Below are positions 24,815 through 51,690 of a stretch of 64,000 nucleotides of DNA, in pieces. The notes under the pieces are model-generated. The model was not told the DNA's origin and searched no databases. It was given only the letters and a program-made list of their open reading frames with translations. The stretch comes from Schmidtea polychroa (lineage: Eukaryota), in assembly GCA_044892525.1 (NCBI GenBank), contig CM097887.1:23622001-23686000 (forward strand). The letters run 5' to 3'. Numbering within the stretch: the first letter of the stretch is position 1; each line of letters begins with the position of its first letter. Made by a program: the position numbers and the translations under genes.

Positions 24815-24840
24815 CTGATTGGATGAAAATTATTATATAA
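24815..24840 (+). promoter_or_regulatory. Inverted CCAAT box plus TATA box of LTR-A
   Basis: CTGATTGG 24815-24822 and TATATAA 24834-24840 at the end of a ~450 bp A-rich tract; mirrored in LTR-B. Confidence 0.65.
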
Positions 24841-26966
24841 GGCGGCCGTTAAGTTAGTTAAGTAACTTCTAAAAATTCATAACAGGTAAAAGCTTTTTTA
24901 TTAAAATCACAGTAACTTCTAAAAATTCATAACAGGACGATCCATCGACTTTAGCAAACAATTAATCAACTCCAAAAAATTCCATACAGGAACTCTAAAC
25001 GGAAACTTCTAGAAACCATAACAGATCAACTCAACTATTTAACAATTATTTTCGAGAAAACAATTACGAATTACAAATATTCATAAAAGGAACTAGAATT
25101 TCAGAAAACTCCAATAAACGATATCCATTCAGCTCCATTTTGAGAATATTCATTGAGAGAAATCAAATCGGATCCAAAAGTAAATATGAATTATGATTTA
25201 TTCATTTTTAAGAAAGATTTATGATATGATGATATTTGTAATTATATGAGTAAAATATTATCCTAATTTAACAATTTTCCATTCTCTCTTCACGGGGATG
25301 CCGGCGACGATATTTTCTGAACATCTGCACATGAGCTCTGAAGTCGTCCAGGAATTTATGATGAACAGAAAATCTATTATGCAATTCCCAATAAAATGGA
25401 ATGTCATCGATAGTAATGATCGAGAATCAGAAGGACAAAATTATATCCATAAAATGTTCTGCTATAGATGTATGAATCAAGAGAGACCATAACGTTTCCA
25501 ATGAAAATCCTGACGATGAGTATCATGAGCGGATTTCAGAGAATGTGGTCACTGGTAAGAGTTTATATATATGATAAATAATTATTTCATTATATTTTGA
25601 TTTCCTGAATTTATTGTAAAAATTTTATATAAGGGTCAAACCGTCTGGCATGGTAGTCCGAAAGTAGTTGGTACTTGTACCGGTGGTTTTCGGGTGGATC
25701 ATGAAAGGTGGTAAGACAAATACCGACTTTATAGATTTGCGATTTTAATGAGAGGCGATTTTGTGTATCATCTTCGAGGTGCAATCACCGGTCAAAACAC
25801 TAACAACACGAATTTTAGATGCTAAAGTATAGATTCCACAATAATTTCAAATCGATAGAAACTCTGATCTATAGGGTTCATGAAAAGTGAAGGTTTGAGA
25901 TCATGGTTTGCAGTGATAGGATATTTTTGATCAAACAAAATTTTGTAAGAGCAATTCATACACAGAGTAGCATTCATCACAATCTTGAGTCAAATAAAAT
26001 CCCACATTCGTTGTATTATAGGGCCAGCCGATGACTTCCTATTTCGATAGAGAACTCCAATTTTTCGATGAACCGTCCTGACGTAGATAGACATCAGAAA
26101 GTCATTGTCGTCCCGAAAAACTTCGGTCGGCATTAATTTCCTCGAATGACACGAGCGATTCGGTAATGAGATAAACAATTTCCACTCATCCATAAACCTC
26201 GAATTACAATAAATTGTTTATAGGTCACATAAACATAGAACGAAAAGTTTATATAAAACGTAAATTGTAATTTCCACAATTTAATACGCGTCTTCCAGGA
26301 TGTAGTTCATACTAATAAATTTTCGGAATTTGTATCATCATTTCACCGACTAATACAATACCAACGCTGCGGGATACTATCAACACAAGTTCAACCATAA
26401 ACACGGTAAATACAATAACTCTATTTCCGTCTGACATTATGATCGACAATTAAGTAAATAAACCACTGTAAATTGGAAATCATGTAATCAAAATCAAATG
26501 CACAAGTAGACGTCTTGGATTCAGCATAATTACGATGGAGTATTATAAACATCCAGCTACAAAAGGACACATAATTAAGATGATTTTTATTTATTAAACA
26601 TTAACGTAATTCCACCTAATAATAATTAAGGCAAATGAAAGATTATGCGATAATTTTTAAATTAACATAATTGATAAAGGGACGGAGGACTTATTAATGT
26701 TTTATTGCGGGAATAAATTGATAAACAATTCACAATTATAGCTATACGGTTTTTAATTAGAAATTAGAGTTAAAAATTGATCAAATCCTTCCCAAGAGTA
26801 AATGCTAAGCAAGTAAATGTGTTACGAGTTGAAGGTACGACTAAAATATACTAATAACTTCTCTGATCCGAACGTTTGTTGTTTCTTTCAAATCGACGAG
26901 CGAGCATATCGATCCATTGTTTAACTAGGTATTTAGCAGGACTATAATCCATTACTTCTTTCAGTT

Positions 26967-27742
26967 ATGACAGAATCAAACCCAGCTATTCGCAGTTTAA
27001 AACCTTGATAATCCTGCTCAGACAAGAATATGGACATTAAAAAACTTCAAGAGCATATAGGGGTCCTGAAAAAGCGTATCGAAACGCTCGAACACACGTG
27101 GTTCTCCCCGCCACAGATGAAAGAGGAAAAATGAAAGTCCTCAGATTAAAACACTGTCGGGACAGTTTGTTGGAGGAAAGCCGCTGTCTGAGCGTCTGAC
27201 AATTAAGGCACAATCTGAAGCCTTACATAAAATCTATACAGATTCGGAAATACAGAAACGGGTGAGAGAATACCCAATTAAAGATTGGACCAACATCTTT
27301 CCTAGCCACCATCAAATTGAAGAACTCAAAGCGTCTGAACTAGCAAGTTGCTCGGGACATGGACCCATGTTCCCAGAAATTTCAACACCGCTTCTAAGCA
27401 CAACATCAAAGGAACCAACTTCTGTCGCACCCAGTCTTCATAACCCTTCTAACGACATTTCTGATTCCAATGCCGAGAAAGAGGCAAATGCGATCCCAAA
27501 GAAGCGAAAGCGGCCTTGAGAGCCGAGCGGACGGCAAAGCGAAGGGAAAAAATGGAAACCCTGGAAGCCACGTTATTTGCGGATCAGTCAGCTATTGAAA
27601 AAATCAACACTAAACAATCAATCAATCAAAGACACTCCCTGATAACTTCAGAGTGATTTCCTCAATAACTACAGTACCTCCGACGGACCCTTGGTTGCAA
27701 GTTGATATAGATGCGCTGTTAACTGAAGGGGAAATGACATAA
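26967..27742 (+). pseudogene. Degenerate paralog of the LTR-B ORF
   Basis: TTTCAG acceptor 2 nt before the ATG. Gives SCSDKN...IKKLQEHIG..KKRIETLEHTWFSPPQMKE...HCRDSLLEESR...QSEALHKIY..NIFPSHH...KKRKR...VDIDALL, with stops and frameshifts. Confidence 0.85.
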
Positions 27743-28233
27743 ATCTCTGCATGGGTCGAGCCGATGCAATTCGCAAAGTATCTTGTAAATAGCATGTGCG
27801 GAAATGCTGCAAATTTCATCGAGACATTCATAAAACTGATCTTGTTTTCATTAACTAATTTAGCTAAGTGTTTTTGATGTGATTAAATTAATATATTTGC
27901 TATGGTGTTTGACTTCTAATGATAGTTAGTATGCTTCAACCGTTTGCCTTGATGGAGATGTTTTCCTTATTCCCGAAACTGGAATATTGTCAGTGTAACC
28001 GGCGCTACTGGCTCGTTTCATTTTCCAGGCGTCGATCTGCCTTCATTTATAATAACATATTAGCATTCTAGTTTGCCGTTCATGGATTTCGTCGATACCG
28101 GTTCAAATTTCTCACTAGGGTGTACATCAAGGTGATTGAATATATTGACAGGGAGACGAGTATGTCTGAGTTTAGTGACGAAAGTGAGAGATATAAAACA
28201 TCGGACCAGGGACGTGAGAATGATGTTAAGGGA

Positions 28234-28355
28234 TAAGTCCTTCTATCGGCACCCGCAAACCTGAACCGAGAAGACTGTGGAGAGTAGTCCTAACATAGGG
28301 GCTCACCTGTCCACCGATTATGACCTGCGTATATATTTCCAACATGAATCATCTC
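28234..28355 (+). other. Conserved structured element near the 3' end of LTR-A
   Basis: TAAGTCCTTCTATCGGC (28234-28250), then GTGGA-GAGTAGTCCTAACA-TAGG-GGCTCA-CCTG-TCCAC (28277-28314); homologous to 43771-43855. Confidence 0.7.
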
Positions 28356-29369
28356 CACAGGTATACGTAAGGGAGATCAATCGTAAGTCATGAAGGGTGT
28401 TTAGGGAAAAAACCTGAGCATAACATCAACCACCCTAAGCACCCAACACAATTTTGTCGACACAAGACATATTCGAACTGGGCAACTTCCTTTGATGCTT
28501 CCTCGATCGATTGAATCTGCTGGATTGATAGTTTTCACTGAAACTTTGGAGAATTTGGATAAAAAGTTTTGATAAAAATTAAGAAAGTGAAATATAGAGA
28601 GTTTTAAAAACTATGGTTTTGTGGTTAAATAATTAAGTCTTGAAAATGACCTTTCTCCAGTACAACTAGTGACTATTAAACTGAGAGACAGTCGCAAAAT
28701 TGATTACACATTTTATATTAACATGTCTTTCATATTACAGAGCTAACATGAATATAAAAGAACGTAGGGATATCAGTGAGCCGAACGCGCTGATATTAAT
28801 TTATACATTTTGAATGTTTATTTATTAGTCATATGCGTAGAATTTCTCCTTATTTTCGGTCCAATGTATCAGTGATCACTGTTTTTAGAATAGTGTAATT
28901 TTAATTTTATCAACAATTTCAATATAAGCCCCTCTTGATCTTGAGGACCTAGACTGAAGCCTAGATAGTTGATAGGAAAATCCCGCCCTGCTTATACGAT
29001 GGGAATAATATAAACAAAATTTCTGTTTTATTATAAAGTAAGCACATATGCACAGTAACAAATTTGAACTGCTACTGCCTAATGCACAGATGAACAAGTC
29101 AAAAATACAATCTTTGACTCTCAGCCAATATTTTCTCACGTGGAAACATACGTTTCTGGTCATGAAGAGGTTAACTATTTTTCAAAAAATTATTTTTGTT
29201 TGATAATTATCCTCCTTGCCATAATGTGTGTATTACATTTGTTGGGGCTGGGCTCGCTTAGGCAGCAATTTTGATAGCCATATAGAGGCTAGGGTTATAA
29301 TTATAATAATAATAAATAATTACTTATTAATAAAAATAGAAATAATTCCTATAAATAAGTTAAGATAAG

Positions 29370-31082: not shown

Positions 31083-31540
31083 ATGATTATTAGAAAATTA
31101 ATGGAAGAATCAACTATTTTAACTCCGAACACACCTCAACGTAAGACACGAACTCCTGTCAACCTAGAAAAAATCAATACAATAAATCGACTTAAGCAAT
31201 CAGGTCAATGCACAAAATTTATCGCCGAAACATTAAATCTAAGTATATCAACAATTACTAAATTATTGAATAATATCCACTGTTGTAACGAAGAAAATCG
31301 AGAACTAAATACTATTCTTAAAAAGAGCAATAACAAGAAGATGAATAAATAAATCATCACGAACGGTTTCTACTGATGTGATTAACCAACGAAAAGTATA
31401 TTCAAGAGAAATGCGACTTATTCCCAAGTGAAAATTAATTTTTTTAGATGAGAGTGGATTTAATCTCCACACAGGTGCTCATTATGGATACTCACCTGTC
31501 AAGGTTGACGCTTTTCAAATATTGCCATCAAACAGAAGCA
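31083..31540 (+). mobile_element. IS630/Tc1-like transposase 5' fragment
   Basis: HTH (IAETLNLSISTITKLL), then FLDESGFNLHTGAHYGYSP...ILPSNRS with the first catalytic Asp. The frame runs straight into the cassette ORF below. Confidence 0.75.
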
Positions 31541-34500
31541 GGACAGGTAACTCTAGAATTACAGAAGAATGTGGGAGAAGCTGGACCCGAATCATGCGAC
31601 TCTCTGGAATTCCAAACTCAGATGCGACCCGATACATTATGAGCATTCTGCTGGAGACAAACGATCACAGCCGAGAAGGAGATTGCATGGCCCTCAAGCT
31701 TCTTACCTCAATAACCAAGAAGACAGAGGAGGAATATGAGATAAACAGGCGAGATTGTTTGGATTTTTCTAATAATTTAAATAACCTTAATAATAAATTA
31801 AAAAAGAATTCTCAAACCCAAAAATCTTTAAATGATGATAGCCTTTTTGACCAAAACAGAAATGAATACAACAAGATTGTTAATAGCTTTATAAATCCTA
31901 CCCTGCAATATATGCCTATTGACAGGGGAAACGTAGATCTTAATCCGAATAAGCCCAGTTATAGAGACGCCCTTATTGGAAGCAAATCATCTTATAATAA
32001 ACTCCCCATGGGAAAATCCTTCTCTGTGCCTCCAAATAATAAGACGGTATCTAATAATCATCGAAATACCCTTAAAGACTTCGAAACTGAAACTATGCCA
32101 ACACCAGTACCAATTAATGATAATAAAAATAGACCTACTAATAACCCAAATAGGAACAATAATCTTGGTTCTAACAGATCAAAAACCAGTTATTATGATA
32201 ATAAAAACAATTTGCATTATAATACATTGAATCATTATTCTAATAATTATGAAACTACTTCTTATAAAAATTCAAATAAACTGAATCATAATGATATTAA
32301 AGCTACCTCTACTAATAACTCTAATGATTATACAATCACCGGAATATTAATTGCATGGAGAAACCCGATTAAAAATGATTACATGATAAATGTAAACGAG
32401 GCATTCACAAGAGGGGAAAATACGTTGATGAGGGAAGCAATGAAAGGACACAATTTATTCGAAATTCCAAACCAATTATTAGAACGAGGAATAAAGTTCA
32501 CGAACCATAAAGACGAACAGCTACTAAAGAAACGAATCGACACCTTCGAAAAATCAATATTTCAGTTCATAAACAAAGTATGAGATAGATATTGGGTTAG
32601 TGTATTATATATGATGAATACGATGAACAATATCCGCGAGAATTACCTAGACATTATTCAAGTACTTACAGCAGAAGAACGAATCAATAACTCAACCGGA
32701 AAGGAAATAAAAATAAAGAAAGGAGTATCAAAGGAACCGAAGTCGCAAACGAATCAAACTACAACAAATAACGTTACCGAAACAAAACTAATAAATTCAG
32801 ATCAAGAAACAATAATACGCAAAGCCAAAGAAGTGTTCTTCGAAGAAATGCAAGAGTTATCAGACGAAATGATATTGTCAAAAATAATGAAAACCGTACA
32901 TACGTATGCAAGAGATCAAACAACGAATTTAGATATAGGGAAAATCAAAACCTTCATGCCACGAGCATTCACTATGGTAACAAAAGATCAACGAACACCA
33001 TTACAACAGGCAATACTGGCAGCAAAAGAAAACCGAGCGATAACGATCATATGAATCCTCAGAGATTTGGGTGACGAAACCAACACGAAAAACGAACAGG
33101 GCGAAACAGCGATGATGTATGCAGCTATAACAAAAATACACCCAAAAACACTACACATACTACATCAATCCGGATCAAGACTAGACGAGATATCAAACGA
33201 AGGAAACTCCACAATGGATTGGGCAACCATACAGCCAAACCTAGAATTGATCAGATTTATTTGCAAAAATGCGACAAGAGAGGAAGTTGAAAATATCTGC
33301 AAAAACACATCTCAATTCCAGTGGAATACCGTACGAAAAAATCTGGAAGCAATGAAATTACTATTAACATGGAAAATACCGCAAAGTAATAAATACGCGA
33401 TAAACGTAAACGAATTTTATGAAAACGGAGAAAATGCGATGGTCAAAAATACATTAACTAAAGGGGGGACACCAAAAATCATACTAATTGTATTAAATAG
33501 AGAAGATCTGAGATTCACAAAAAACCAAAACGAACAGCAACGAATTGGAAAACACCGCCGTGTACAACTAAGAGAATTAGTAAAAGAATGGAATCGGAAA
33601 AGACACGCAGCAACCGGAAGAAAGGAGTTCGAATTTGAAGCTAAATTAGCAAGAAATAGAGTGTTAACAGCATATCGCAGACTATTGAACGATATAAATG
33701 TCGAGGACGACATTTTAAACGACGGCGGGGGAGACAAAGACGATGATAATGACGGGAAAGGTCAAAAGGAAGATAAAGAGAAAAGAAAGCCGGATGAGAA
33801 TAACCAAGAAAACAAAGACCCAGGTACGGAAAAGGAGGGAAACAACCCGGAGAACGAGATGAAAGGGGAGGAAAAAACAAATAATGGAAAACAGAGGGTA
33901 TGCCTACCTTTCACCAACAAAGAAATGGAAACAAATATGATATTATTGATAATTGTGCTGACCATGATAGAGTTAGTAACAGCCCATGGAGGAACGAGAA
34001 CGATAGAAGAGACCAAAGAAGCGGATAATCACGACAACAAACAGGAAGAACTAAAACAAGAAAAGAAAAAGCAAGTGCAAGAGCAACAATGGGATCTAAA
34101 AGAGGAATGGAATCTAAAGGAAAGGTGTATACTAGGAAGATGCATGTCTAGAGCATATCAGAGATTAGTGTTGATAAACGAGGACACAGAACCAATAACG
34201 GAAGTGGGAATACAAGAAGCATACCAACATCGAAACGGGAAGAGAATAACGAAGGTAAAATGGAAGGAGATACACCTAGGGAAAGGAGGCGAGATAGCGA
34301 TAACAGAACTCCAACCAAGGAAAGAACACAAAGTCTGTATCTCAAGGTTAGGACCGGGAGAAAACTGCCTACAATATGTAATACAGCAACAACCACCAAA
34401 AGAATATACGGTCTGTATCATAAGGAAAGGACCGGAAAGGGAATGCCGACGATACCCGGGGAAAAGAGGAAAGAAAAGAAAAATCAACGACAAAGGAGAA

Positions 34501-34974
34501 GAGAAGGAAAAACGCAAGAAAACCAATGAGAAAAACCAAGACAATTATGTGTCAGAAGAAGAAATGGAAAAAATACAAAATATGGCAAAAGAAGGTATCA
34601 GCGAGGAGATAGCAAGAATACGAGGGATGATGAAGGGAAATGGGAAAAGGGGAATCGAGAAAAACACAAAGACGGTATCAACAATTACGAACAAAGAAAA
34701 ATCAGAAATTATCAGCGTAAATCAGATGATATGGATCAGTGGAATAATAATAACCCGAGCGTTCATAATTATAACGGGGGGGGACGATAAAAATAATCCG
34801 AGACAAAAGACAGCGTCACCAACTCGAAATGATCAGAGTCAGAAATTTCCAACATCGAGTGAAAAGACCCAGCAAAATAAGCCAAGAACAGTGGATGGAG
34901 GCCTGGAATACGCAGCGCCCTCCAAATCCACGGATATAGAAAGGGTTATGACTGTATATAATTGTAAAAAGTAA
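31540..34974 (+). pseudogene. Cassette ORF1: ~1145-codon ankyrin-repeat / membrane protein, 5' end missing, two in-frame TGA
   Basis: ORFs 31522-32583, 32611-33054 and 33067-34974 are one frame broken only by TGA at 32581 and 33052. Order: Asn-rich region, three ankyrin repeats (RTPLQQAI, GETAMMYAA, GNSTMDWA), charged linker, hydrophobic MILLIIVLTMIELVTA, tandem Cys motif (KEHKVC..C / KEYTVC..C), second hydrophobic segment. Confidence 0.7.
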
Positions 34975-35101
34975 GTATATCTTATGTATATAACAGTACC
35001 ATATTTTTATATAAACGCGGTATAAATATTATAAAAGCTCGGGTAAATAAACAATATAAAATTAAATAAGACAAAGATTGAGAATGTATATAAAATTAAG
35101 A

Positions 35102-35461
35102 ATGGATCAAGTAAATCACGAAATAAACCACAACATCGCAACCGAAGACATGTGGAAGCAACAATGCGCTGTGCTAGCACAATTAGTATCTAATCTACAA
35201 GAGCAAGGACTTACGATGCAAAGAAACCTAGTCGATAGTCTAAACAGAGGATTTAGTTATTTAAAAATAATTGAGGATCAGAGGATAAAAATCGAACAAA
35301 TGCAAAGAGAGATAGAACGGATAACACGATATAGTCAGAGACAAGAAATCGAATTAGAGAGAATGGCGGAAGAAGCAGAACAAGAAGAAATGGAAGACTG
35401 GTCAGAATGGTTAATGAGGAGAGAGGAGGGCGGACATGAAGCCGACTCGTCTGAACCATAA
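35102..35461 (+). CDS. Cassette ORF2: small coiled-coil protein with acidic tail
   Basis: Open ORF with heptads. ATG at 35102 follows TTAAG-A. Confidence 0.6.
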   Translation: MDQVNHEINHNIATEDMWKQQCAVLAQLVSNLQEQGLTMQRNLVDSLNRGFSYLKIIEDQRIKIEQMQREIERITRYSQRQEIELERMAEEAEQEEMEDWSEWLMRREEGGHEADSSEP

Positions 35462-35545
35462 ATAAAACCCAAACTAGATGTAAATAATTGTAAATAAAAT
35501 ATCGAACCTGTATCGATAAGAAACTATATGTATATAATTGTAGAC

Positions 35546-36881
35546 ATGGATAAAGAGAGACGAGAGGAGTTTAACGTAATCATTGAACTAGTCAGAAATT
35601 CCACAGTAATCAAAATACAAAAACATGTTATGTGCGGAATATGTGAAAAGTTGTTAAAAGAACCCCATCAAACCAAATGCGGATGCAGATTATGCAAAAA
35701 ATGCATAGAAGAAACAATAAAAAACAGACCACAGTGGTGTCCGGTATGTAAAGAGACACTGATATCAAGTTTAGAAGATACCAATGAAGATAAGGCCGCA
35801 GTAAAAGATATGTTGAACGCTAATCTGGGATGCAAAAATACTCCATGCGAGTGGAAAGGATTAATATGGAAAGTAAAACAACATATGGGGGAATGTATGT
35901 ATAGAGTCAGCCAGTGTGAACGATGCCAGAAAATAATCCAAGCTAACGAAGAAAAAGAACATCAAAGTCAATGTGAAGAAAGGCTAGAAATATGTGAGTA
36001 TTGCGGAGAGATAGACACATGGAAAAACTTAACCATCAAACATCACAATGTACAAGAAGAACAGGTATGCGCTGAATTCTGTGGTGAATGCCCAAATGGA
36101 TGTGATAAAGGCGGAAGGATAAAAATAGCACAGCACTTAAAGGAATGTGAAAAGAAAAGAATGATATGTGTACTAGGCAAATGGGGCTGTCGGAAACTAC
36201 TACACCGAGGGGAATTACCACACCACTTAACAGAAAATGTAGCCACTCACGCAGAAATGTGGTCAACTGCGTTACAAGAAAATGAAGAAAAGGTTTAACA
36301 AATGGAGATAGAAATAACATCGTTGAAAGCATTGGTAAAGGAACTATTGGAGGAAAGAGAAGCGTTCGAGGAAGCCCGAGCAAACATAAAGATGCAAATA
36401 AATCGGATAGAGATCAGTAATAATCAGGCCAAGGAACTACATCAGAAAATAAACGAAATAAATCTAAACGAGGTAATACCAACAGCGCCTTATATATGGA
36501 AAATAACAGGAGTAAAAGAAAAGATACGAAAAGCAAAAACTGGGGAAGAGACAAGAATAACAAGTCCTGCATTCCATTCTTGGAAGAACGGGTATAAAAT
36601 GAAAATGAAGATATATCCCAACGGGGACGGAACCGGATTAGATACACACTTTTCGATAATCTTTCTGTTATGTAAAGAGGAATATGACGAAATATTAGAA
36701 TGGCCGTTTCAGGCAAAAGTCGACATTATAATAATGAACGATCAAAGCATACACGAGCAAAGCTTCAAAACAACGGGGAATCAGATAGCCTACCAGAGAC
36801 CCCTCGACGAAGAAGGATCAGCAACGGGAGCACCTACGTTCATTCTGCAACGGAAAGTGGAAGAGATGACGAGAAACGACA

Positions 36882-36957
<76 letters not shown>

Positions 36958-36996
36958 ATGACAGTGAGGAAAGACGGAAAGAGCCGAACAGAGTAG
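35546..36996 (+). pseudogene. TRAF: Cassette ORF3: intronless TRAF-family protein (RING, TRAF zinc fingers, coiled coil, MATH)
   Basis: RING CGIC...CGCRLCKKC...CPVC; CKNTPCEWKG; CERC/CEYC/CPNGC fingers; MATH YIWKI...GYKMKMKIYPNGDGTG..HFS...EYDEILEWPF. One in-frame TAA at 36296. A (TA)n expansion shifts the last strand DTIYIKMTV out of frame. The specific paralog is not assignable. Confidence 0.92.
36884..36954. repeat. (AT)35 microsatellite inside the TRAF MATH domain
   Basis: 71 nt AT run in place of the ATA TAT ATA codons. Confidence 0.95.
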
Positions 36997-37182
36997 CCAG
37001 TGTGAATAATGTTGTATATAATTTGTATATATCGGTGCATATAACCAATAAAATAGTATATAATAAAGGTATGGGAACCTCAAATACGACAACCCAAAAA
37101 TGAAGCGAAAAATCTGTGAAAAACATTAATTGAATAATAAAATTGTTACAAAAATGAATTTATCAATACCTCTAATTTAGAA

Positions 37183-38091
37183 ATGACACAAGAGCAAATA
37201 ACCACAAGTACTGAGGGTCCAGCAATAATCAGAATTAGTGAGGAAAACAAGAGGAAGTGGACTACAGTAATGTCTCAATTAGCCAACCTAACTAGAAATC
37301 ACATTGAAGAGGCTAGGGAGTATGAAAATAATAAATATCGATGGCTAGTAGACAATTTGAGAGCCGAGGCAGAAGCGTGCAAAAGAGCCTCTAAGTGGGC
37401 GTCGTTAGAAAATACCCGTCAGGAAGCGCACAGTCACTACCTAAAACAGCTAGTGCAAGAAGCAAGAAAGAGACTTACTGATGAGAACACAAAACGAGAA
37501 GCGGAAAAGCAAAGAGAAGGAAGGAAAATGATCCACCTATTGGCAGAAGCCAGGAAATGGAAGCGACAAAGCAGAGAGATAATAAAGGAAATGAAGGAAT
37601 TGCCTACGAGATTAAAATACGAAAGCGAACAGGGCAAATGGGAGGAGAATCTAATCCTAAAGGAGGAACAAAAACGGCTAAGAAAAATTGCCGCCCGAAG
37701 TCAAACATGGCAGACTAAGGCCATGGAGTTTGAAAGACACTTAGCAATGAAGATCTCCATAAGGGAACACGAAAATGCCGCAATGGAAGAGATGATACTA
37801 CAGCAATCGGGACGAGTCGTGGAATTAGCAAATAAAGTCGCCGAGCTAGAACGGGATAACAATGGGTATAAAGGAGCTCTGGAACAGAGAAATATGGTAC
37901 TGGAGGGGAAAAATAAAAAGCTAGAGATCGAAAGGAAAATGTATGATGAAAATATTAAAAATTTAGAAATAGAGATCGAAAAATGGAAGGGCGACGAAAA
38001 AATCAAGGCACTAGACAGACAAATAGAGGTGAAGGACGAGGTACCTCACCTATTTGCTCGACGAGGAACTCAACATTTCAAGGGCACTTAG
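37183..38091 (+). CDS. Cassette ORF4: 302 aa E/K/R-rich coiled-coil protein
   Basis: Open ORF with continuous helical/heptad character. ATG follows TTTAG-AA. Confidence 0.7.
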   Translation: MTQEQITTSTEGPAIIRISEENKRKWTTVMSQLANLTRNHIEEAREYENNKYRWLVDNLRAEAEACKRASKWASLENTRQEAHSHYLKQLVQEARKRLTDENTKREAEKQREGRKMIHLLAEARKWKRQSREIIKEMKELPTRLKYESEQGKWEENLILKEEQKRLRKIAARSQTWQTKAMEFERHLAMKISIREHENAAMEEMILQQSGRVVELANKVAELERDNNGYKGALEQRNMVLEGKNKKLEIERKMYDENIKNLEIEIEKWKGDEKIKALDRQIEVKDEVPHLFARRGTQHFKGT

Positions 38092-38401
38092 AGATGAAAT
38101 TCACAAGCTGAGAGCTCAAATTCCCCAACACTATGTACCTTACGACCCCGTTGCTATCCAGTTACGGTCTTCAGTCGAGAGCGACGAAGGATACGTGGGG
38201 CAAGAGGAGACCTTCGTGTAAATAAATACTATGATTAAAAAGACAAAAAAATTATAAAATCGGGACCTATATCCCAAACAAAAAAATTAAAGGTATAGTA
38301 AAAGTATCCAAGGGACTGTAACCCTAATTATCTAAAATTGCATATGAATGTATAAGTATAAGCCGCATTATAGCGCACTATTAATTGTACATATTATAGA
38401 C

Positions 38402-39103
38402 ATGAAGATTGAAGAAATAGTAGAGCTCATGAGTGACGTAGAAGAAAGAGAGATGGAAGCAGAAACCACAGAAACACAAATGCTAAAGGAAGAGTTATGG
38501 GAAGAGAAGCGTGAAAACGAGAGATTAGTAAACAAATACATAGAAGACCGGAAAATAATAAAAGTACTAAAGAAAGAGTGTAAAGTATTAGGAGAAGTAA
38601 AGAGAAAAGTTGAAGAGGAAAACGAATGACTTCACGAACAAAGGAAGCGAGGGAAAAACTGGGAAAAGATCGCGGAAGAATTATGGCAAGAAAGAGCCAG
38701 TAGAAAAGCAGACGAAGTAATTAGCGATTATTGGAAAACAGAGGCACGGAAACACCAAGAAAGCCTGAAAGAGTTACAACTCCAACTACATCATAAACAA
38801 AAGGAATGTGAAATAATGAGAAGAATGAACCACAAATACCAAGAAATAGACGATGAGAAGAGAAACAGAGAAGATGGAGAAAGAGAAAAGTACTTTCTAC
38901 AACTGATGAATCATAAAAACTTAGAGAGAGCCACCCAAGAAATAAAAGTATTAAAAAGAAAAATAAAAATCCTAAAACAACAGGTAGATGAAAAAGACAA
39001 ACAACTAGAAGTACTACCCGAATTAAGAAAACGGGTAATAAAAGCAGAAACTAAAGTGATGAGAGCATCTGAGAAAGCCCGAAAAAAGAAAGCCCTTCAA
39101 TAA
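38402..39103 (+). pseudogene. Cassette ORF5: coiled-coil protein with one in-frame TGA (38627)
   Basis: ORFs ending 38629 and starting 38816 share a frame with no other stop. ATG at 38402 follows TATAG-AC. Confidence 0.7.
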
Positions 39104-39157
39104 TTAAAGATGAATAATCGATGTGAATAATGGTAAATAAAAAATATGTATAATAGT

Positions 39158-39796
39158 ATGTGGCCCGGAGCAACCCTCGTAATAATGATAATAATAATAA
39201 ACGAAATTCAAGCGAAACAGTCAACCCAAAAAGGCCAGAAGATTACCGAGAATCAGATTTTCCCACAAGACCTCATAACCAAATTAAGAAACGGAAGAAA
39301 ATCCTACAACCACATCCAGAAACAATGTTGGAACAAAGCCGTCTGGCAAAAGATTCAAACGCAACTCATCCTGCAAACCCAAAAAATCGAACAACTCAAA
39401 ACTCTTCTACAAAAACAAACTATCCAACAATCCTTGAAAGAAACCATCGTGAAGAAGGAAGCCAAAGAGAGTCAAGTCTTACTCTATATTACAATCAGTG
39501 AAACCATCATCATCTGCACGCTAGTCATCTGGAAAGCGTATGATATCCATCGAACATGGCAAAGAAATCAGCCACTTACCGAGAAACCCAAAAGAAAGAA
39601 ACCACGAACAAGAAACGTACCAAAGCGGACAGTACATTTTCAACAATCCGATCCACCTGACCTATCTCCCAGCCAGATACCCGCGACAATTCAACTCACC
39701 ACAGCGACAACATCGACAAGCCATCCAATCCAGAATTCCCAAGATTCTCGACAATCAACCAGCGATGACAGTAATCATGACATCGACTATCCATGA
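39158..39796 (+). CDS. Cassette ORF6: predicted type I membrane protein
   Basis: Signal peptide MWPGATLVIMIIIINEIQA, Q/K-rich helical ectodomain, TM VLLYITISETIIICTLVIW, basic then S/T/P-rich tail. ATG follows AATAG-T. Confidence 0.65.
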   Translation: MWPGATLVIMIIIINEIQAKQSTQKGQKITENQIFPQDLITKLRNGRKSYNHIQKQCWNKAVWQKIQTQLILQTQKIEQLKTLLQKQTIQQSLKETIVKKEAKESQVLLYITISETIIICTLVIWKAYDIHRTWQRNQPLTEKPKRKKPRTRNVPKRTVHFQQSDPPDLSPSQIPATIQLTTATTSTSHPIQNSQDSRQSTSDDSNHDIDYP

Positions 39797-39921
39797 ACTT
39801 TGTGTATATAAATCTGGTCACCTTAAGTGACATCTGCTTGCTTTATATTTGTCCTTTAACCAGTAATATAGTCTTGTTTTATTTTTGCTTTTTATGTATG
39901 CATGAAGTAAGTTGAGTATGC

Positions 39922-39959
39922 AATTGCGGGACGCAATTTTGTCGGGTCCCCGAGTGATT
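39922..39959 (+). promoter_or_regulatory. Pre-LTR hairpins at the expected polypurine-tract position
   Basis: AATTGCG-GGA-CGCAATT (7 bp stem), TTT, then TCGGG-TC-CCCGA and GTGATT immediately before TGTTGGG. Not a canonical purine run. Confidence 0.4.
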
Positions 39960-40292
39960 TGTTGGGCTGAGTCGAAAACTTAACTTTTGAAAATTTAGAA
40001 AATAAGACAGTAGGATATTAAAGAAAATAAAAATAAAATAAATAAATTCAGGAATAAAATAGAATAAGAAATAAGAGAAACAATAATTAGAAAATAAGAA
40101 TTAAAACAAAATAAAAATAAGAAAAATTAAAATAAGACAATTGAATGACGAACAAAATAATGTAAAATTCAATAAATAATGAGGAAATTAAGGAAATAAA
40201 TAGAAAATATAGTAAAAATAAAGGAAATAAGGAAAAATAACCAAAAAACAGGAAAAAGTAAATTAAATTAAGAAAATAAGCGGTACTCAATT

Positions 40293-40329
40293 CTGATTGG
40301 TCCGCATACATGCAAAAATACTATATAAA
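40293..40329 (+). promoter_or_regulatory. Inverted CCAAT box plus TATA box of LTR-B
   Basis: CTGATTGG 40293-40300 and TATATAAA 40322-40329 after a ~300 bp A-rich tract. Confidence 0.7.
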
Positions 40330-42752
40330 CAGACACGAAACTCATTGCAATCACTGTTAATTTCAACTTGCTATAGACGATAACCACGCAGAATTTACGG
40401 AACCTACTCAAAGAATAATATTCAACACGAAATCATCGCTATTTAAGGAAACGACAGGATCAAGGACTAATAGACAAACCTCACAGGAAACTAGCTCGTA
40501 AACTTCGACTCAGCCCACAATAAATTTCGAATCGATAACTATAGTAAGAAAAGTTTCTATTTGTTTTTAGATTATTAATTATTATGAAGTATTACCTAAC
40601 GATTGAAAACTTTGTTTAATAATAGCGTGTCTTTTCATTTGATTTCCCCGTAATGGATTTTGATTAAATTAACTATTTTAATGTCTTATAGTAAACATTC
40701 ATAAATAAATTATTTATTTCAGGAAGTTTTTGATGATGTGTTTTCATGCATGAATATCTTACGAATCTAAATTTTTATGAGAAACGTGGCGTTAAGACGG
40801 ATGGCGTCATGGTAAGAGGTGCCTTCGGGAGCTCTGCCGGTGGACGTGCATCGTTTCAATCACGCAGCTGGATTGGGCCTGAAAGTGAGGGTCCAATCGC
40901 TGAAGATGACTTAAAATTTGATTTGAGTGACAGAAATTTGGTCATAGTAGTAGTTCTAAGCCTATAATGGAGTATAGCTATGCGATTTACAGTGATTGAG
41001 GTGAACACTCTATCTATACGTACAAGCTCCGAGGGTACTGAGTAGCTCTTCGAGAGAAACATGCGAGCTAATAATGAAAATCTCTGAAGTGACTGTCTCT
41101 ATTCGTTCGAAACTTGGCTCTAAGCTCGAGTGAAATTTAGTCTCCATTTACTTTGACAATAATTACGTTTTTCGGAAATCATCTTTTACCTTCTAAGAAA
41201 GTACAATCACGGCGGGTATAAAAGAAATTCAATCATAAATTAAGACATATGAGGACATTTTATTTAAAACACCGTTATGAACAGATTGTCTACTACCTGA
41301 ATCAGTCTCCTTTTCTACGACTCCACATGAGAGGCATCATCGTCGAAACAGCTCTTATAGTCACCTTCTAGTTAATCTAGGGAGACGTTTCCGCACCTGT
41401 TATATCCAACGGCGGAAGACACGATAGTTAGTGACGAAATCCAATTTCGTAGAACAGTTGTGAATTAATAGGCAATGATGCCATCATAAAATTTTCTAAC
41501 ACACGATAAGTAGATAAGTAAAGTCCAGCACACGTTAGTAGGTTCTATGAACACGGATTGGTGAGAAGTGAACGATTTGAATTTTCCAGCGTTACGTGCA
41601 TGGATTGATAAGAGGTTCATCAAGCAACACATGAATAGATAAACCTTATGAGAGTGATTGTTGATAAGCACACTGCCACTAATCTCACCTGACAGTACAC
41701 ACGATAAGATTTTGAGCAATGTGAATAGCAAGGAGTGATCACATTAGATAAGAAATAGCACGAAACGCAGAACTCCGGTTGTTAACTCTCAGATCATGTT
41801 GCTGATAAAATATTAATGTCACTAACCAGATAAATTAACCAAATCTGTAACCGACTGCAGAATGTCCAGACGCATTAAAGTACATTTATAAATTGACCCT
41901 TCTCAATTATCATCGAAATTGTTGGGTAATTATTGTAGACAATCCTAAATTTCAACTAAGCAATACGATAAAGTCATATGAGCCTTTACTACAGTGAATT
42001 GTCGGAAGTACGGTTAAACGCCTGAATAGATAAAATCCCATCCAAATGATTTCCAAAAGAATCCTAAATAATTAGACTAAATTTTCTAACCTAACTAATA
42101 AGCTTGTATTTTAAAAATTTCTAACCCCTTAGTAAATAATGCATGCTTATAACCCTGTCATGAGAATCACGAGTTACTCTACCGTTTGAGTATATTAATA
42201 TAATCCTACACTCCGGATAACAATCTCAAGGTGTGGTTTGAAGGTAGCACCAGTAGAAGGGTATGACGAGTGAATTGACTGAATTCAGTAGCGCTAATAG
42301 TATAACTCTGCAATAGTTTCGTTTTTCTAGAGACCTTAACTAGCAGCTCAAACAACAACCTAAAGTTAATTAAGCAAAAACCGACAGTACAGTAAATGAT
42401 AATACAACCTACTTTAACGGGTAATCAGCGATATTTTGAGTAATCACCATAGGAAAAAAATAATAGTTAGTAGTAGTCAACCAACCAGTAACAGTAAAAC
42501 GAATTATAATTAACCAGGGTAAGCAAAAAGCGGAGAATATTATAAGTAATTATTTAAGAGTAGTGTACGACATATCTGGCGCTACCGCTAAAATCGATCT
42601 AATAATAGGTTCAATAATTCCAAGGGAGGGTTCCTTTCTCTACTTCCTGTGTTTGTTTATATCTGATAGTAATTCAGCCACTACTCCCAATTCCCAATTC
42701 ACAGTCATAGTATAACTTAACCCTCATGTTTCCTTCTTTACAGTTATTCAAC

Positions 42753-43502
42753 ATGTTACCGAACAACAAGTCAGTACTACAGCCTTGCTTCTCCTGTGCA
42801 GATAAAAATGCAGTGATTAAAGATCTACAAACCCAGATCGGTCGATACAAGCGTAAAATCGACGAGCTGGAAGGCACATGGTTCAGCCCAGTGCAAATGA
42901 AAGAAGTGCAGAAAAAGCTATACCGTAGGGAGCACTGCCGGGACGCTCTAATCTCCGAGAGCCGCTCCCAACGAAGCTTAATTAAAGAACAATCCGAAGC
43001 GCTACATAAGGTATATGTACAAGCAGCAACAACTAAGAAAATCGTTCAAATCCCCCTCAATGAAGCCGATAATCTGTTCCCAGTGCACCACGACACCTCG
43101 GCGAAGTCATCGTCTCCATTTAAGAGATCATGTCGTGAGTGTGTAGAAACCGAGCTTTCACCGAAATGTCTAGATATTATCTTCACGGGGACTAGTAAAG
43201 CACAGCCCAACATCATACCCACATCCGCAGGGCCGCAGGTGAATCAACCAATATCGAAACCTAAACGCCGGCAACTATCGAGGGCCGAGCGCAAGAAGAG
43301 GCAGCGCGAACGAGCGTTAACCAAATCAAACAACCCCTCAACGGGAAATCCGATCAATATCGACAACTCCCACATATCCATCGATCTAACCACAGGAATC
43401 CCAGCGCGGATTATCTCAGCCGCTGGTGTGACATGGGAGGAAAATGCCGCCGAATTCTTCGATTTAGATGAATTGCTAAAAGACACCGAGTGGGAGAAAT
43501 GA
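42753..43502 (+). CDS. LTR-encoded 249 aa protein (CxxC, coiled coil, basic NLS-like tract, acidic-hydrophobic C-terminus)
   Basis: Intact ORF 9 nt after a TTTACAG acceptor (AG 42742-42743). Motifs CFSC, KPKRRQLSRAERKKRQRER and EFFDLDELLKDTEWEK*. Homolog at 26967-27742. Confidence 0.8.
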   Translation: MLPNNKSVLQPCFSCADKNAVIKDLQTQIGRYKRKIDELEGTWFSPVQMKEVQKKLYRREHCRDALISESRSQRSLIKEQSEALHKVYVQAATTKKIVQIPLNEADNLFPVHHDTSAKSSSPFKRSCRECVETELSPKCLDIIFTGTSKAQPNIIPTSAGPQVNQPISKPKRRQLSRAERKKRQRERALTKSNNPSTGNPINIDNSHISIDLTTGIPARIISAAGVTWEENAAEFFDLDELLKDTEWEK

Positions 43503-43770
43503 ACACCCACCGCGAAATGCTCTCCTTGACTACCATCTGATATACTCTTTTGTCTTGTATTTTCATTGATTCTCTCCCTTATGATAGTAACCTTTGCAAT
43601 GTACAAAATTCAGTGTTATAATATTATAATAAAAGTGTTGCTCTTATCTGTCTTTTGGTGAGGAATTACGTACCGATTTTTGGGTGAATGAAAGTTTTCT
43701 AGATTTGAAGTGTCTCAGTAAATTTGCATTCGGCGTACTTTAGCGGGGGTTTTGACAGCGTGATTAGACG

Positions 43771-43890
43771 TAAGCCCTCCTATCGGCGGTCGTGTGGAAG
43801 AAAGTCGAGGCCTCAGTAAGGAGTAGTTCTAAGGCAGGGGCTCACCTGCTTACTGGCGTCTCGTCGGCATAGTACAGTTCCAACGTGAAA
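43771..43890 (+). other. Conserved structured element near the 3' end of LTR-B
   Basis: TAAGCCCTCCTATCGGC (43771-43787), then CAGTAAG-GAGTAGTTCTAAGG-CAGG-GGCTCA-CCTG-CTTACTG (43814-43855). Confidence 0.7.
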
Positions 43891-44028
43891 TAATTCACGG
43901 GACTATGTTGAAGGATAGGTTATGTGGGGTTCTACTCAAATTTGACAAAAGGATAGCTATTAGGCGAAAATGGACAATCACCCCTTAGAGCGTTAATATA
44001 GGGCGGTCAACCGAGTGGTACCCCAACA

Positions 44029-44303
44029 CTTACGAAAATGAAACAAATTTTGAACAAGCTAGGAATAATAACTTCGAGAAGTACAAAAATTTAGCAATTG
44101 ATATAGGCCATGCACACAACTGCAAAACCTCACTGCTAACTCTTGTTATTGGTACACTTGGCACATGGGATAGGAAGAACGACAAAGACCTAAGGATAAT
44201 TGGTCTGAGTAAAGCAGAAATTAAAGCTCTAGCAAATAAAGCCTGTACAGCAGCCGTAATCAGCAGCTACCACATATACAGAGAGCACATCTACAAAGAC
44301 TAA
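44029..44303 (+). mobile_element. 3' end of an REL-endonuclease non-LTR retrotransposon (NeSL/R2/R4-type); target of the LTR element
   Basis: (P)YENETNFEQARNNNFEKYKNLA...LVIGTLGTWDRKNDKDLRIIGL...SSYHIYREH*. Not in the ORF track. Confidence 0.85.
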
Positions 44304-45399
44304 CACATACCTCCATATTTCTTTATATATTATCTATCTCTCAAAGCATTACCTTATTTATATCAAATCTATTCTCTATTATACTAAAATATTAACTATC
44401 CCTTTGCAATGATGAGATTGATAGATGGTATTGTTTGTATTTTGAGTACTGCGTATGATTGTACTGTTATTGATAATAGCAATNNNNNNNNNNNNNNNNN
44501 NNNNNNNNNNNNNNNNNNNNNNNNNNNNNNNNNNNNNNNNNNNNNNNNNNNNNNNNNNNNNNNNNNNNNNNNNNNNNNNNNNNNNNNNNNNNNNNNNNNN
44601 NNNNNNNNNNNNNNNNNNNNNNNNNNNNNNNNNNNNNNNNNNNNNNNNNATACTAATAATAATATTAATAATAATAATAAAGAGTAATCCCTTAAGCTTA
44701 ATTGACAAAAATATATTTGCAATAACCTAAACCATACACCTCTTCGGGTAACCGACTTATTTACTAGAAAGGACCCACCATGATGAATATCCAATGATGA
44801 ATAGAGCAATACCACTCCGACTGCCTGACACTACCTCAATCGTCAATCACTTAAAAACATGGCCTGCCGGAGCTCCTTAAGCTGCACCTGTAGTCCAGCA
44901 ATCAGAAAAACATATTAATCAGAAGCCAACCAACGTGAAAATCTATCCAGTTATAGACAGGGAAAAACCATACTCTACTCCAATGACATATTTGACACCT
45001 ATCCCTCAATCCAATCAAACTACGGAACCCAAACCCAACTCCAATGACTAATTTCTCAAACAATCAAATCAATCAAACATTTCATATATCGCATCACTTA
45101 TCTTATTGTGTTTTAACGTTTAATCCAAGAAACCTTAACCCAATCACTCCAACCAATCCAACCAGAAGGCCATAGTACCCTATGTGCCAATATCCAAATT
45201 TTTGTGTTGTCTTACTTTATATCTATATTATAGTAATTTTTAGTAACGTCACCACCACACCTGGCTTACGACAACCTTTCTAAACCAATAAATATCAATT
45301 CCTTCCACCAATACCTTCCAAACTATACCTATCAATACTACATCTTCCTTTCAAACCCTTAACCCTCAATCCCATACAATCAGTGTTCTCAGTTACAAT

Positions 45400-48840: not shown

Positions 48841-51690
48841 CAGTGATTCCCGTCCCGTGGTAAGCGTACTCCTGGGGGTACGCGAAAAAATATTAGTAAT
48901 GGCAGATGTTAAATATAACTCCCGCCTCAATTTAGTTACAAAGCGGTGGCAAACATTGACAAAAAAAATTGTTTTAGCGCTCACTATTTATTCACAAAAT
49001 ATTTTTCAAAGTTATGTGTGCCCCTCGGAATCGCATGATCACATTACAACGGTTGTGTTAGAATTCAAGTGGACCCAATGTTACAAAGCGTGTCTATTGT
49101 AGTGTGACAAATTTTACTAATTTTACTAATATTACTAATTAATAACAACTTTATTTTCAAACGGTAAGTTTTAACATTATTTTAATTTCAAACTTAAATT
49201 AATTTCTAAATGAATTTAGGATTAAATATGGATCAGTGATTGAAAGCTGATACAATAAAAAACAATAAGCGTACACTAGAAAGTGACGAATTAGTTAGTA
49301 CTTCTCAAGTCACATCAAAAACACAAGTACAAATACAAAACACAGAAAATGTGCCGTCTTCAGTTCTGCAGATAGCTAAAAAGAGGAAATACTGCGACGA
49401 ATATATGAAATATGGATTTTCATATGCAGGAGGTGAAGACAGCCGTAAACCAAAATGTGTAGTATGTGGTGAAGAGCTATCAAATGGCAGTATTTTTTAC
49501 GTCATCTCCAAACAAAACATGCCAATTATTAAAACAAAGAATATGATTTTTTTAAACGCTTAGCAGCTCAAAATTTGAAGATGTCAGTTTGACATTGTAC
49601 ATCCTGCCAGCTAATAAAGATAACGAAAATGCGACTGAAGCTAGTTACCGCATTAGTTACTGTAACAATCATACAATTGCAGAGAATCTAATTCAACCAT
49701 GCATAGAAGATGCTTTTCGGTGTATGCTTGGAGAAGAACATGTGCAAAAAATAAAAAATATTCCTCTTACAATATCTCGAAGAATTTTGGATATGTCTGA
49801 TAATTTTGAGGCAACAGTGATTGATAGAATTAAAAACAATAAGGTTTTCGCTATAAAAGTTGATGAAAGCACGGATGTTGCAAATTTTGCTATTTTGCTT
49901 GTTATTGCGAGGTATTTAAAAGACAATGAAGCCGATGAAAACCTTTTACTTTGTCATGCTCTGTCAGAACACACAACAGGTGGGTATATATTCAAAGCTA
50001 TCGATTATTATTTCCAAGAAAAAGGCATAAATTGGTCTAATTGCTGTGGGTTTTGTACCGATGGTGGCAAGTCTATGTCAGGTATTTATTCCGGTCCGCG
50101 CGGTCGAGTCTTGAAGATTGCTCCCAAAATAAGTTGCTGTTGCATCCACAGGCAAAGTTTGGCATCTAAGTAAAAATAAAAAATATTCCTCTTACAATAT
50201 CTCGAAGAATTTTGGATATGTCTGATAATTTTGAGGCAACAGTGATTGATAGAATTAAAAACAATAAGGTTTTCGCTATAAAAGTTGATGAAAGCACGGA
50301 TGTTGCAAATTTTGCTATTTTGCTTGTTATTGCGAGGTATTTAAAAGACAATGAAGCCGATGAAAACCTTTTACTTTGTCATGCTCTGTCAGAACACACA
50401 ACAGGTGGGTATATATTCAAAGCTATCGATTATTATTTCCAAGAAAAAGGCATAAATTGGTCTAATTGCTGTGGGTTTTGTACCGATGGTGGCAAGTCTA
50501 TGTCAGGTATTTATTCCGGTCCGCGCGGTCGAGTCTTGAAGATTGCTCCCAAAATAAGTTGCTGTTGCATCCACAGGCAAAGTTTGGCATCTAAGTAAAA
50601 ATAAAAAATATTCCTCTTACAATATCTCGAAGAATTTTGGATATGTCTGATAATTTTGAGGCAACAGTGATTGATAGAATTAAAAACAATAAAGTCTTCG
50701 CTATAAAAGTTGATGAAAGCACGGATGTTGCAAATTTTGCTATTTTGCTTGTTATTGCGAGGTATTTAAAAGACAATGAAGCCGATGAAAACCTTTTACT
50801 TTGTCATGCTCTGTCAGAACACACAACAGGTGGGTATATATTCAAAGCTATCGATTATTATTTCCAAGAAAAAGGCATAAATTGGTCTAATTGCTGTGGG
50901 TTTTGTACCGATGGTGGCAAGTCTATGTCAGGTATTTATTCCGGTCCGCGCGGTCGAGTCTTGAAGATTGCTCCCAGAATAAGTTGCTGTTGCATCCACA
51001 GGCAAAGTTTGGCATCTAAGTTCCTTCCAGTGCAAATGAAGCGTATTTATCAGACATTTTCATACGTACAAACAATCTAAATTTAGCACTTCAAAATAAC
51101 TCTATATCGATATTCAATGTCTCGGATAAAATTGAATCAGTGATTAAAAAAATTAATTTTTGGAGAACATGTATTGAAAACTGTCAACCTGAGGTATTTG
51201 AAACTTTGCACAATTTCCTATCAGAACTTTGCCTCTCCAGAGAATTGAGCAACAAATATGAACACTTAAAAGAGCTAAAATCAAATTTCGAGAAGCATTT
51301 TCACAAACCTGATGTAGGAAACAATTGGATTTCAAATCCTCTCAATGACGAATACTTTCGAATAGCTTAATTTTCAATCACTGAAAAAGAGAACTTAATT
51401 GAACTTTCAAATGATTTTACTTTGAAAGTCGAATTTAAAGGAAAATGTCTTATTAACTTTTGGTCAGATATTAGTACCGAATATGAATTACTTTCTGCCA
51501 AAGCGCTTAACGTTTTGTTACCATTTATAAGTACAGTGCTGGTGGAAAGAGCATATATCTCCATATCTCTTTATTAAAAACAAATACAGTAATAAGCTGA
51601 ATGCAGCTAGAGATTTAAGATTATACCTTGCATCAATCGAACCTGACTTCAAAAACTATGCGCCTCAAAGCAATCTCAAGGATCTCACTA
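48841..51690 (+). mobile_element. hAT (Charlie/ZBED5-like) element, degenerate transposase
   Basis: Left end CAGTGATTCCC...GGGGGTACGCG. Motifs KRKYCDEYMKYGF, CVVC, VDESTDVA, CTDGG, CCIHRQ.LA and a hATC region ending QGSH*. Confidence 0.88.
49747..51021 (+). repeat. Tandem triplication, 3 x 425 bp, inside the hAT transposase
   Basis: Units 49747-50171, 50172-50596 and 50597-51021. Copies 1 and 2 look identical; copy 3 differs at about 3 positions. Confidence 0.95.

Follow-up and report, generated by a model that had tools for sequence, protein, structure and literature searches.

Acceptor-like AG dinucleotides are conserved in front of the accessory reading frames of a giant Burro-type retroelement in Schmidtea polychroa

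We analyzed a stretch of 64,000 nucleotides (nt) of Schmidtea polychroa (NCBI GenBank assembly GCA_044892525.1, contig CM097887.1, positions 23,622,001 to 23,686,000, forward strand), hereafter the window, whose own coordinates are used throughout. Its positions 32332-44028 are the 3' part of a copy of a Burro-type gypsy element with long terminal repeats (LTRs); this copy is 5'-truncated and damaged. On the plus strand it carries the 3' tail of a polyprotein (ankyrin region and C-terminus; 32332..34974), a cassette of five open reading frames (ORFs) named here A to E, and the 3' LTR (TG...CA; 39960..44028). Each cassette ORF starts one or two nucleotides after an AG. Judged from their sequence across copies of the element, these AGs are real, conserved and acceptor-like sites.

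The host family of the cassette is a young, high-copy, ~30-kb Burro-type gypsy element. A first look at the genome yielded 364 candidate cassettes, of which 40 were scored: the window and 39 copies with 83-89% identity. The conservation counts given below cover these 39 close copies and 10 copies of diverged subfamilies, whose cassette proteins are 35-80% identical. Of the five copies that we traced in the upstream direction, one has an internal deletion and four form LTR-internal-LTR units of about 29-34 kb, with LTR pairs of 3.8-4.0 kb that are 99.7-99.9% identical and lie 25-30 kb apart. All four full copies are flanked by 4-bp target duplications, and the ends of the window LTR agree with theirs. 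Blastn matches of the window to four other copies begin at 32332, and the ankyrin domain was found in the matching ORFs. The internal region presents a RING ORF, a giant polyprotein ORF and then the five cassette ORFs. Piecewise Pfam analysis of the polyprotein in two copies gave the order Gag, CCHC, weak Bcl-2, fusion glycoprotein, protease, reverse transcriptase, RNase H, integrase and ankyrin. An env-like domain thus lies between gag and pol, and the integrase follows RNase H, as in Burro-type elements. Among the cargo domains, Pfam identified MATH, RING and ankyrin, and the Bcl-2-like match was weak (E 0.007, below cut-off). No BIR domain was found among 12 scanned pieces, which span the polyprotein in part. 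The Burro-type assignment was made on layout, size and domains.

Across copies, the cassette ORFs contain about 119, 463, 350, 235 and 210 codons (A to E) and lie on one strand, with undamaged spacers of about 40-195 nt. ORF A (35102..35461; 119 amino acids, aa) presented no family above cut-off and no match in a homologue search; by a rough estimate, its nonsynonymous divergence (dN) is far below its synonymous divergence (dS). ORF B (35546..36990) is TRAF-like, with a RING domain, zinc fingers, a coiled coil and a MATH domain (RING and MATH by Pfam), and the homologue search returned one unnamed protein at 36%. Its ~463 codons are open in many copies; the window copy is interrupted by a stop (36296) and by a (TA)n run (~36884-36950). 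ORF C (37183..38230; ~350 aa) and ORF D (38402..39103; ~235 aa) are charged and helical in composition, with window stops at 38089 and 38627, respectively. ORF E (39158..39796; 212 aa) is fast-evolving and contains two hydrophobic stretches; its Atlas matches were all under 0.8. The ratio dN/dS was saturated for several of these ORFs, and Rfam gave no match over 32000-44500. The first-pass annotation of this DNA had described spacers of 54-310 nt, of which the 310-nt figure is an effect of the premature stop of ORF C in the window copy. Small conserved GC stems with 6-7-nt loops are present in the C-D spacer (38260-38380). The motif TGTAHATA, presumably the shape of a Pumilio site, is abundant in all spacers except for the last 70 nt before C. 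We considered and rejected a CFIm reading of the TGTA motifs, as planarian cleavage sites are described without UGUA enrichment in the part of the source consulted (PMC5068929).

The first-pass annotation had reported the five AG-N(1-2)-ATG patterns together with a CAG at 26964, another at 42743 and a GTAAGA at 40544, and every one of these coordinates is literal. An AG lies 1-2 nt before 36 of the 156 plus-strand ATGs of 33101-39800 (0.23), which gives 6.5e-4 for five of five. A YAG precedes 13 of these ATGs. The pattern also proved conserved across copies: in the 39 close copies the AG was present at 187/187 placeable sites out of 195 possible (A 38, B 39, C 38, D 36 and E 36, the E sites having been picked by an AG-containing pattern and the three missed copies carrying no ORF E at all). 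In the diverged copies (n=10) it was kept at 36 of the 38 placed sites. Candidate acceptor A (35098..35100) reads AAG, or TAG in 4 copies, and was kept in 38/38 close and 9/10 diverged copies. Candidate B (35541..35543) is a TAG, kept in 39/39 and 9/10. Candidate C (37178..37180), the strongest of the five, is a TTTAG kept in 38/38 and 7/7. Candidate D (38397..38399) is a TAG, or CAG in 5 copies, with 36/36 and 6/6, and a YTRAY lies ~20 nt before the ATG of ORF D in 36/36 copies. Candidate E (39154..39156), which is possibly coding, is TAG or CAG with 36/36 and 5/5.

The cases that tell most for acceptors, as far as motifs can, are C, D and E. In front of ORF C, 50 variable bases give way to an invariant TTTAG; as it stands 2, 3, 4, 5 or 6 nt from the start, it does not behave as a fixed Kozak position. 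At D and E, TAG and CAG are exchanged. Genome-wide, the start of ORF C gave 149 matches with the AG and no family match without its A; the 3 A-less matches are unrelated DNA. We also built a matrix from the 37 acceptors of ORF F, an ORF located inside the LTR. The cassette AGs rank 3 (candidate C), 12, 21, 36 and 41 of the 659 AGs. In three spacers the cassette AG is the best-scoring one and in the other two it comes second, and the scores resemble those of the LTR intron-1 acceptors. It could be argued that such AGs arise by chance in an AG-rich strand and are inherited by descent, since an AG at 1-4 nt precedes 43% of the ATGs of the region, the copies are related and their spacers are conserved overall. 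We consider this explanation very improbable. YAG is found at four of the five sites against a background of 8%, the same design recurs at ORF F and the RING ORF, and the AGs are invariant while most four-fold sites vary: in 32 distinct copies of ORF B, used as a neutral yardstick, 5/27 four-fold sites and 31/85 two-fold sites were invariant. Two further tests were set aside. Retroposed spliced copies were sought in the genome through loss of the A of the AG, with one pattern each for B and C: the C pattern matched 3 unrelated sequences, and the B pattern matched 2 diverged copies in which the AG is retained. The comparison of reading frames with the terminal AUG of the leader is uninformative: the distances in close copies are not divisible by three, whereas distances of 3 and 6 are found among diverged copies.

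We further analyzed the start codons. An earlier in-frame ATG is present in the window copy for four of the five ORFs (35084, 35528, 38348 and 39146); it is in frame and open in 6/38 copies for A, 13/39 for B, 22/36 for D (a stop blocks it in 14) and 34/36 for E. The copies support the AG-adjacent start for A, B and C; for D the case is fair and for E it is doubtful. Out-of-frame ATGs occur shortly 5' of the AG in C (26/38, at -11), B (20/39) and D (13/36), which is expected if this part of the leader is removed by splicing. Alternatively, a single unspliced polycistronic RNA might be translated by leaky scanning or reinitiation, in which case the AG would merely follow from a purine at -3 and from the stops of short upstream frames. 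All five window starts do have a purine at -3, and some upstream ATG frames stop at the TAG itself (C, 26/38 copies). However, the CAG variants of D and E do not encode a stop, the AG persists even at spacings that do not place it at -3, and scanning through is poor across ORFs of 120-460 codons with many internal ATGs. This explanation thus appears quite improbable.

Next to these candidate acceptors, the element carries donors of its own. In the LTR, a TATA box and a predicted 24-nt first exon (40322..40376) are followed by an intron that is present in most copies and missing in the window LTR, the first donor lying 52-57 nt after the TATA box. A second LTR donor, GTAAGA (40544..40549), corresponds to a GTAAGR found 120-345 nt after the TATA in 33/35 copies. 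A donor-like GTAAGT (34971..34976) about 30 nt past the polyprotein stop in most copies is identical in 38/38 copies and present in 6/8 of the diverged spacers printed. We rejected a fusion of the polyprotein to ORF A through this site because the stop precedes it in most copies. The stretch from A to E contains no more than two recurrent donor-like sites (9/38 and 20/38 copies).

The element also presents canonical acceptors. In the window LTR, a pyrimidine tract and the CAG at 42743 precede ORF F (acceptor and ORF, 42741..43502; 249 aa from 42753), and this AG is the sole invariant dinucleotide in 83 columns with a mean identity of 0.52. The first-pass annotation had noted that the ORFs of the LTR begin just after acceptors, at 26964 and 42743. 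Both are indeed CAGs, but they belong to two different LTR lineages and not to one element: the former lies in a separate LTR of a diverged lineage at ~24.3-28.4 kb (24834..28448, plus strand), which contains a TATA, a donor, an exon-1 copy and the acceptor 26964 before a broken relative of ORF F. In this lineage the ORF F acceptor is kept in 17/20 copies, some forms being pyrimidine-poor and cassette-like, and the cassette ORFs A-E gave no tblastn match at its twenty loci. Past the primer site, the RING ORF starts with YAG-AY-ATG behind a pyrimidine tract in 4/4 copies, with the geometry of B and D. Upstream of Gag we found a TTTTCAG with no ATG before the first Met (3/3 copies read; a fourth did not align). 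ORF F itself (42753-43502; relative at 26969-27750; ~250 aa) belongs to no Pfam family and precedes an AATAAA at 43628. It has 1145 first-look candidates in the genome, and its position within the LTR means that solo LTRs could express it.

A TATA-like motif followed by a GC-rich block (35008..35020) represents a possible internal promoter for ORF A: one 13-mer is found in 36/38 copies and differs by one change in the other 2. Each ORF, or small groups of ORFs, might be transcribed from a TATA box in the spacer, in the manner of the foamy-virus internal promoter, the AG being part of the start site or of the translation context. TATA-like hexamers also lie at about -60 for D (31/36) and at -130 to -175 for C, and nested transcripts would suit a single poly(A) site equally well. 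On the other hand, such hexamers are common in AT-rich DNA, B and E have none at a usable distance, and out-of-frame ATGs would remain in the leaders of B, C and D. Internal promoters would also leave unexplained the exchange of TAG and CAG and the variable distance between AG and ATG. By eye, no conserved initiator was seen after the 35008 motif at the TATA spacing of the LTR. We regard expression of the cassette from internal promoters as rather unlikely.

The 3' ends provide a further line of evidence. Following the ORFs, the first-pass annotation had placed AATAAA hexamers at 35046, 35461, 37047, 38221 and 39136, read them as marks of operon-like processing and cautioned that AATAAA alone is weak evidence in AT-rich DNA. 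The five positions are literal and the caution is borne out by shuffling: AATAAA is expected in 0.44-0.73 of shuffled spacers, so that its occurrence after each ORF is not above chance. The hexamer at 37047 is kept in 32/39 copies, whereas the one at 35461 is found in 1/39 and the one at 38221 falls inside the coding sequence of ORF C elsewhere. AATAAA or ATTAAA occurs in nearly every spacer. Planarian cleavage sites are described as U-rich with a hexamer 10-30 nt upstream, as far as the source was consulted (PMC5068929). For each of the five inner spacers, the T fraction after the hexamer was >=0.5 in 0 of 36-39 copies, against 32/33 copies past ORF E. In the absence of a U-rich element behind any inner hexamer, and given its presence after ORF E, the motifs do not support cleavage after every ORF and do support one shared 3' end. 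The likely shared poly(A) region, a hexamer with a U-rich tract, lies at 39860..39915, and its hexamer is degenerate in the window copy. Another conserved AATAAA (37136..37141; 33/37 copies) precedes acceptor C by ~45 nt and forms an invariant block while the spacer around it varies. No U-rich element follows it, but it could still act as a weak additional poly(A) site downstream of the TRAF gene.

These data bear directly on an operon resolved by the spliced leader (SL), in which a polycistronic RNA from the LTR or from the 35008 TATA-like motif would receive the leader of the host at each AG. Planarians have SL trans-splicing (PMC10899757, PMC12582326), the undamaged spacers are under the 300-nt threshold of flatworm operons (PMC12582326), and flatworm acceptors are often common to cis- and trans-splicing; these sources were consulted in part. 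In addition, donor-like sites are few between A and E, no conserved donor lies downstream of the 35008 motif, and hexamers are found in nearly all spacers, the one before C being invariant. Nonetheless, the inner hexamers lack the U-rich element of planarian cleavage sites (PMC5068929), the acceptors of trans-spliced introns in Schistosoma are more U-rich, not less, in the portion of the study seen (PMC5832876), and strong donors lie upstream in the full element. We thus hold an SL-resolved operon to be unlikely, if worth keeping in mind. The stronger proposal, a true operon of the five accessory genes within a giant retroelement that carries an env, transcribed from an internal promoter into a donor-less RNA that SL trans-splicing resolves, appears improbable to us. 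No case of SL-resolved cassettes inside LTR elements was found in a limited literature search.

Of the two options raised by the first-pass annotation for resolving one transcript into single-gene mRNAs, cis-splicing fits the motifs better than SL trans-splicing. The acceptor-like AGs, the donors of the element and its canonical acceptors agree with that proposal, and cleavage after each ORF is the part that they do not support. We therefore favor, at somewhat better than even chances, a model in which each ORF obtains its own mRNA by cis-splicing of one shared leader onto alternative acceptors, with a common 3' end after ORF E. The LTR transcript would be processed into nested mRNAs: a short leader would be joined to one weak acceptor just 5' of a start, the ORF behind it would become the first ORF, and a single poly(A) site behind ORF E would terminate all cassette mRNAs. 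Being weak, the acceptors could share out the splicing events and leave some of the RNA at full length, as in complex retroviruses. The serving donor may be that of LTR exon 1, that of LTR exon 2 or the site at 34971; by analogy with HIV-1 and foamy virus (PMC12789967), the latter might either act as a donor or bind U1 and so protect the RNA from early cleavage. For ORF A, unspliced expression from an internal promoter is possible. From these motifs we infer the use of the AGs, the choice of donor and the shared 3' end. In a tapeworm, cis-splicing joins an LTR donor to an acceptor of trans-splicing (PMC4558846), which favors cis-splicing wherever a donor lies upstream. We also placed contigs on one copy (L056); three of the runs that they come from are presumed to be RNA, and the fourth is of uncertain type. 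Among the 15/42 joints and 22/863 loose ends covered, none at an acceptor carried a leader. Individual contigs run across sites A, B and E or start 5' of them, and at C one contig starts 3 letters ahead of the ATG. Such contigs can neither separate genomic RNA, DNA and mRNA nor show transcript starts, and we used them neither way.

Several observations weigh against cis-splicing at these sites. No spliced junction was observed, and from the LTR donors the intron would span about 20-25 kb. The cassette acceptors are pyrimidine-poor (0.38-0.55 vs 0.78 for ORF F), A is an AAG without YTRAY and B also lacks YTRAY. Their ranks on the matrix partly mirror the higher T content of the spacers relative to the coding strand. 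The spacers are conserved throughout (invariant columns 60/114, 47/82, 82/178, 78/166 and 15/53), other AGs within them are also invariant, and the AG of A, B and D does not stand out. The AG was lost at 2 diverged sites, both in frame-disrupted copies. The invariant TATA-like motif with its GC block lies ~90 nt before ORF A in 38/38 copies. Finally, ORF E presents an open in-frame ATG 15 nt upstream in 34/36 copies; it may start 12-15 nt earlier than 39158, and its AG may instead be coding, within a conserved Met-Tyr-x-Ser start.

The LTR shows a second peculiarity. We compared 42 LTR heads whose donor sits where expected. A second copy of the end of exon 1, itself terminated by AG, follows 43-54 nt downstream: it is exact over at least 20 nt in 34 heads, near-exact in 4 and absent in 4 (one of which is probably no LTR head). 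The 23 distinct exon-1 sequences have a median mutual identity of 0.44; in most cases the exactly matching stretch sets in close to the predicted start site. The duplication is seen in three lineages, with its own sequence in each subfamily (window 24834-24935; L031-L069 at ~5800-5950; L115, L121-L124). One copy only is present in the window 3' LTR, L052, L060, L063 and L064, and there is no donor there in the window 3' LTR, L052 and L063. This arrangement suggests an intron rebuilt at each strand transfer. With a spliced 5' end, the cDNA would jump onto the copy in the intron-containing 3' repeat, the intron would be rebuilt and the copy rewritten in each cycle. Slippage or conversion between tandem repeats is a rival explanation. 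A limited literature search found no other case of an exon-1 copy at an intron end.

We made several additional observations on the element. The two flanks of the truncated copy (31540-32330 and 44029-44303) resemble pieces of restriction-endonuclease-type non-LTR elements, and other mobile elements are inserted in the cassette, LTR or polyprotein of several copies (L038, L049, L067, L032/L033, L083-L084). ORF E and the LTR are mosaic among subfamilies. The primer site starts 7 nt past the LTR (L071:3562-3590, L075:3233-3260, L082:9955-9980, L087:4916-4945), and we take it to resemble a tRNA-Pro site. Before the 3' LTR, a conserved GC-rich hairpin-like sequence (39926-39959) is found rather than a plain purine tract. 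The Gag frame is open for ~115 codons ahead of its first Met, and a short conserved frame with a hydrophobic stretch ends just 5' of the Gag frame (L071:6090-6270, L075:6057-6240, L083:2555-2740). Elsewhere in the window, three tandem 425-nt copies (99-100% identical) lie within a hAT-like transposase fragment (49747-51021), and a 217-nt perfect inverted repeat surrounds a 299-codon minus-strand ORF among Polinton-like ORFs (53544-55068). The segment 52306-53085 presumably resembles a packaging ATPase.

Among the LTR retroelements described in animals, Burro elements are the largest, and they carry regulators of apoptosis and ubiquitin (PMC6431247). Eight candidate acceptors are now mapped along with the conserved donors and an internal poly(A) site, which makes the expression scheme testable with few primers. 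If true, it would extend splicing control of the complex-retrovirus type to a gypsy lineage, in which a TRAF-like protein would have an mRNA to itself. The duplicated exon 1 suggests, in turn, a way to splice the 5' end of the genomic RNA and yet rebuild the intron at each replication.

The closest known systems are the Burro/GYPSM1 giant gypsy-like LTR retrotransposons of planarians, with ~30 kb, multi-kb LTRs and one giant ORF. The element shares with them the order Gag-CCHC, Bcl-2-like (a weak match here), fusion glycoprotein, protease, reverse transcriptase, RNase H, integrase and ankyrin, a MATH/TRAF cargo and accessory ORFs. It differs in that TRAF is a separate ORF downstream of the polyprotein, while it lies inside the polyprotein in Burro1 and upstream in the Dugesia element; these comparisons come from the part of the review seen, which is silent on the expression of accessory ORFs (PMC6431247). 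The five-ORF 3' cassette and the ORF inside the LTR are further differences. Our literature search found no account of Burro splicing; it did not cover the original Burro description, which may treat these ORFs.

SL operons of flatworms and nematodes have, in the sections consulted, same-strand ORFs <300 nt apart and an AG before each start (PMC12582326, PMC5832876), as here; the element differs from them by the lack of a canonical inter-gene poly(A) site, by its upstream cis donors and by the retroelement setting. Foamy viruses and foamy-like endogenous retroviruses of fish likewise present accessory ORFs at the 3' end and an internal promoter near the end of the structural genes (PMC12789967, PMC3185809), and in foamy virus an early poly(A) site is silenced when U1 binds a donor (PMC12789967), as stated in the excerpts of these sources. 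In the present element the internal promoter is a motif alone, and no transactivator was identified.

Similarities also extend to complex retroviruses, in which an LTR promoter with an early donor and acceptors just before the accessory starts are found; in this element they are present as sequence motifs, with E ambiguous. HIV-1 uses weak acceptors and a shared 3' end. In HIV-1 and HTLV-1, the accessory genes are expressed from alternatively spliced mRNAs, in the passages seen (PMC3185809). The differences are that the present case is a Ty3/gypsy element of an invertebrate, that its ORFs do not overlap and that its predicted poly(A) site lies before the 3' LTR. This kind of giant retroelement is thus already known, and its expression scheme is likely a new variation on a known strategy.

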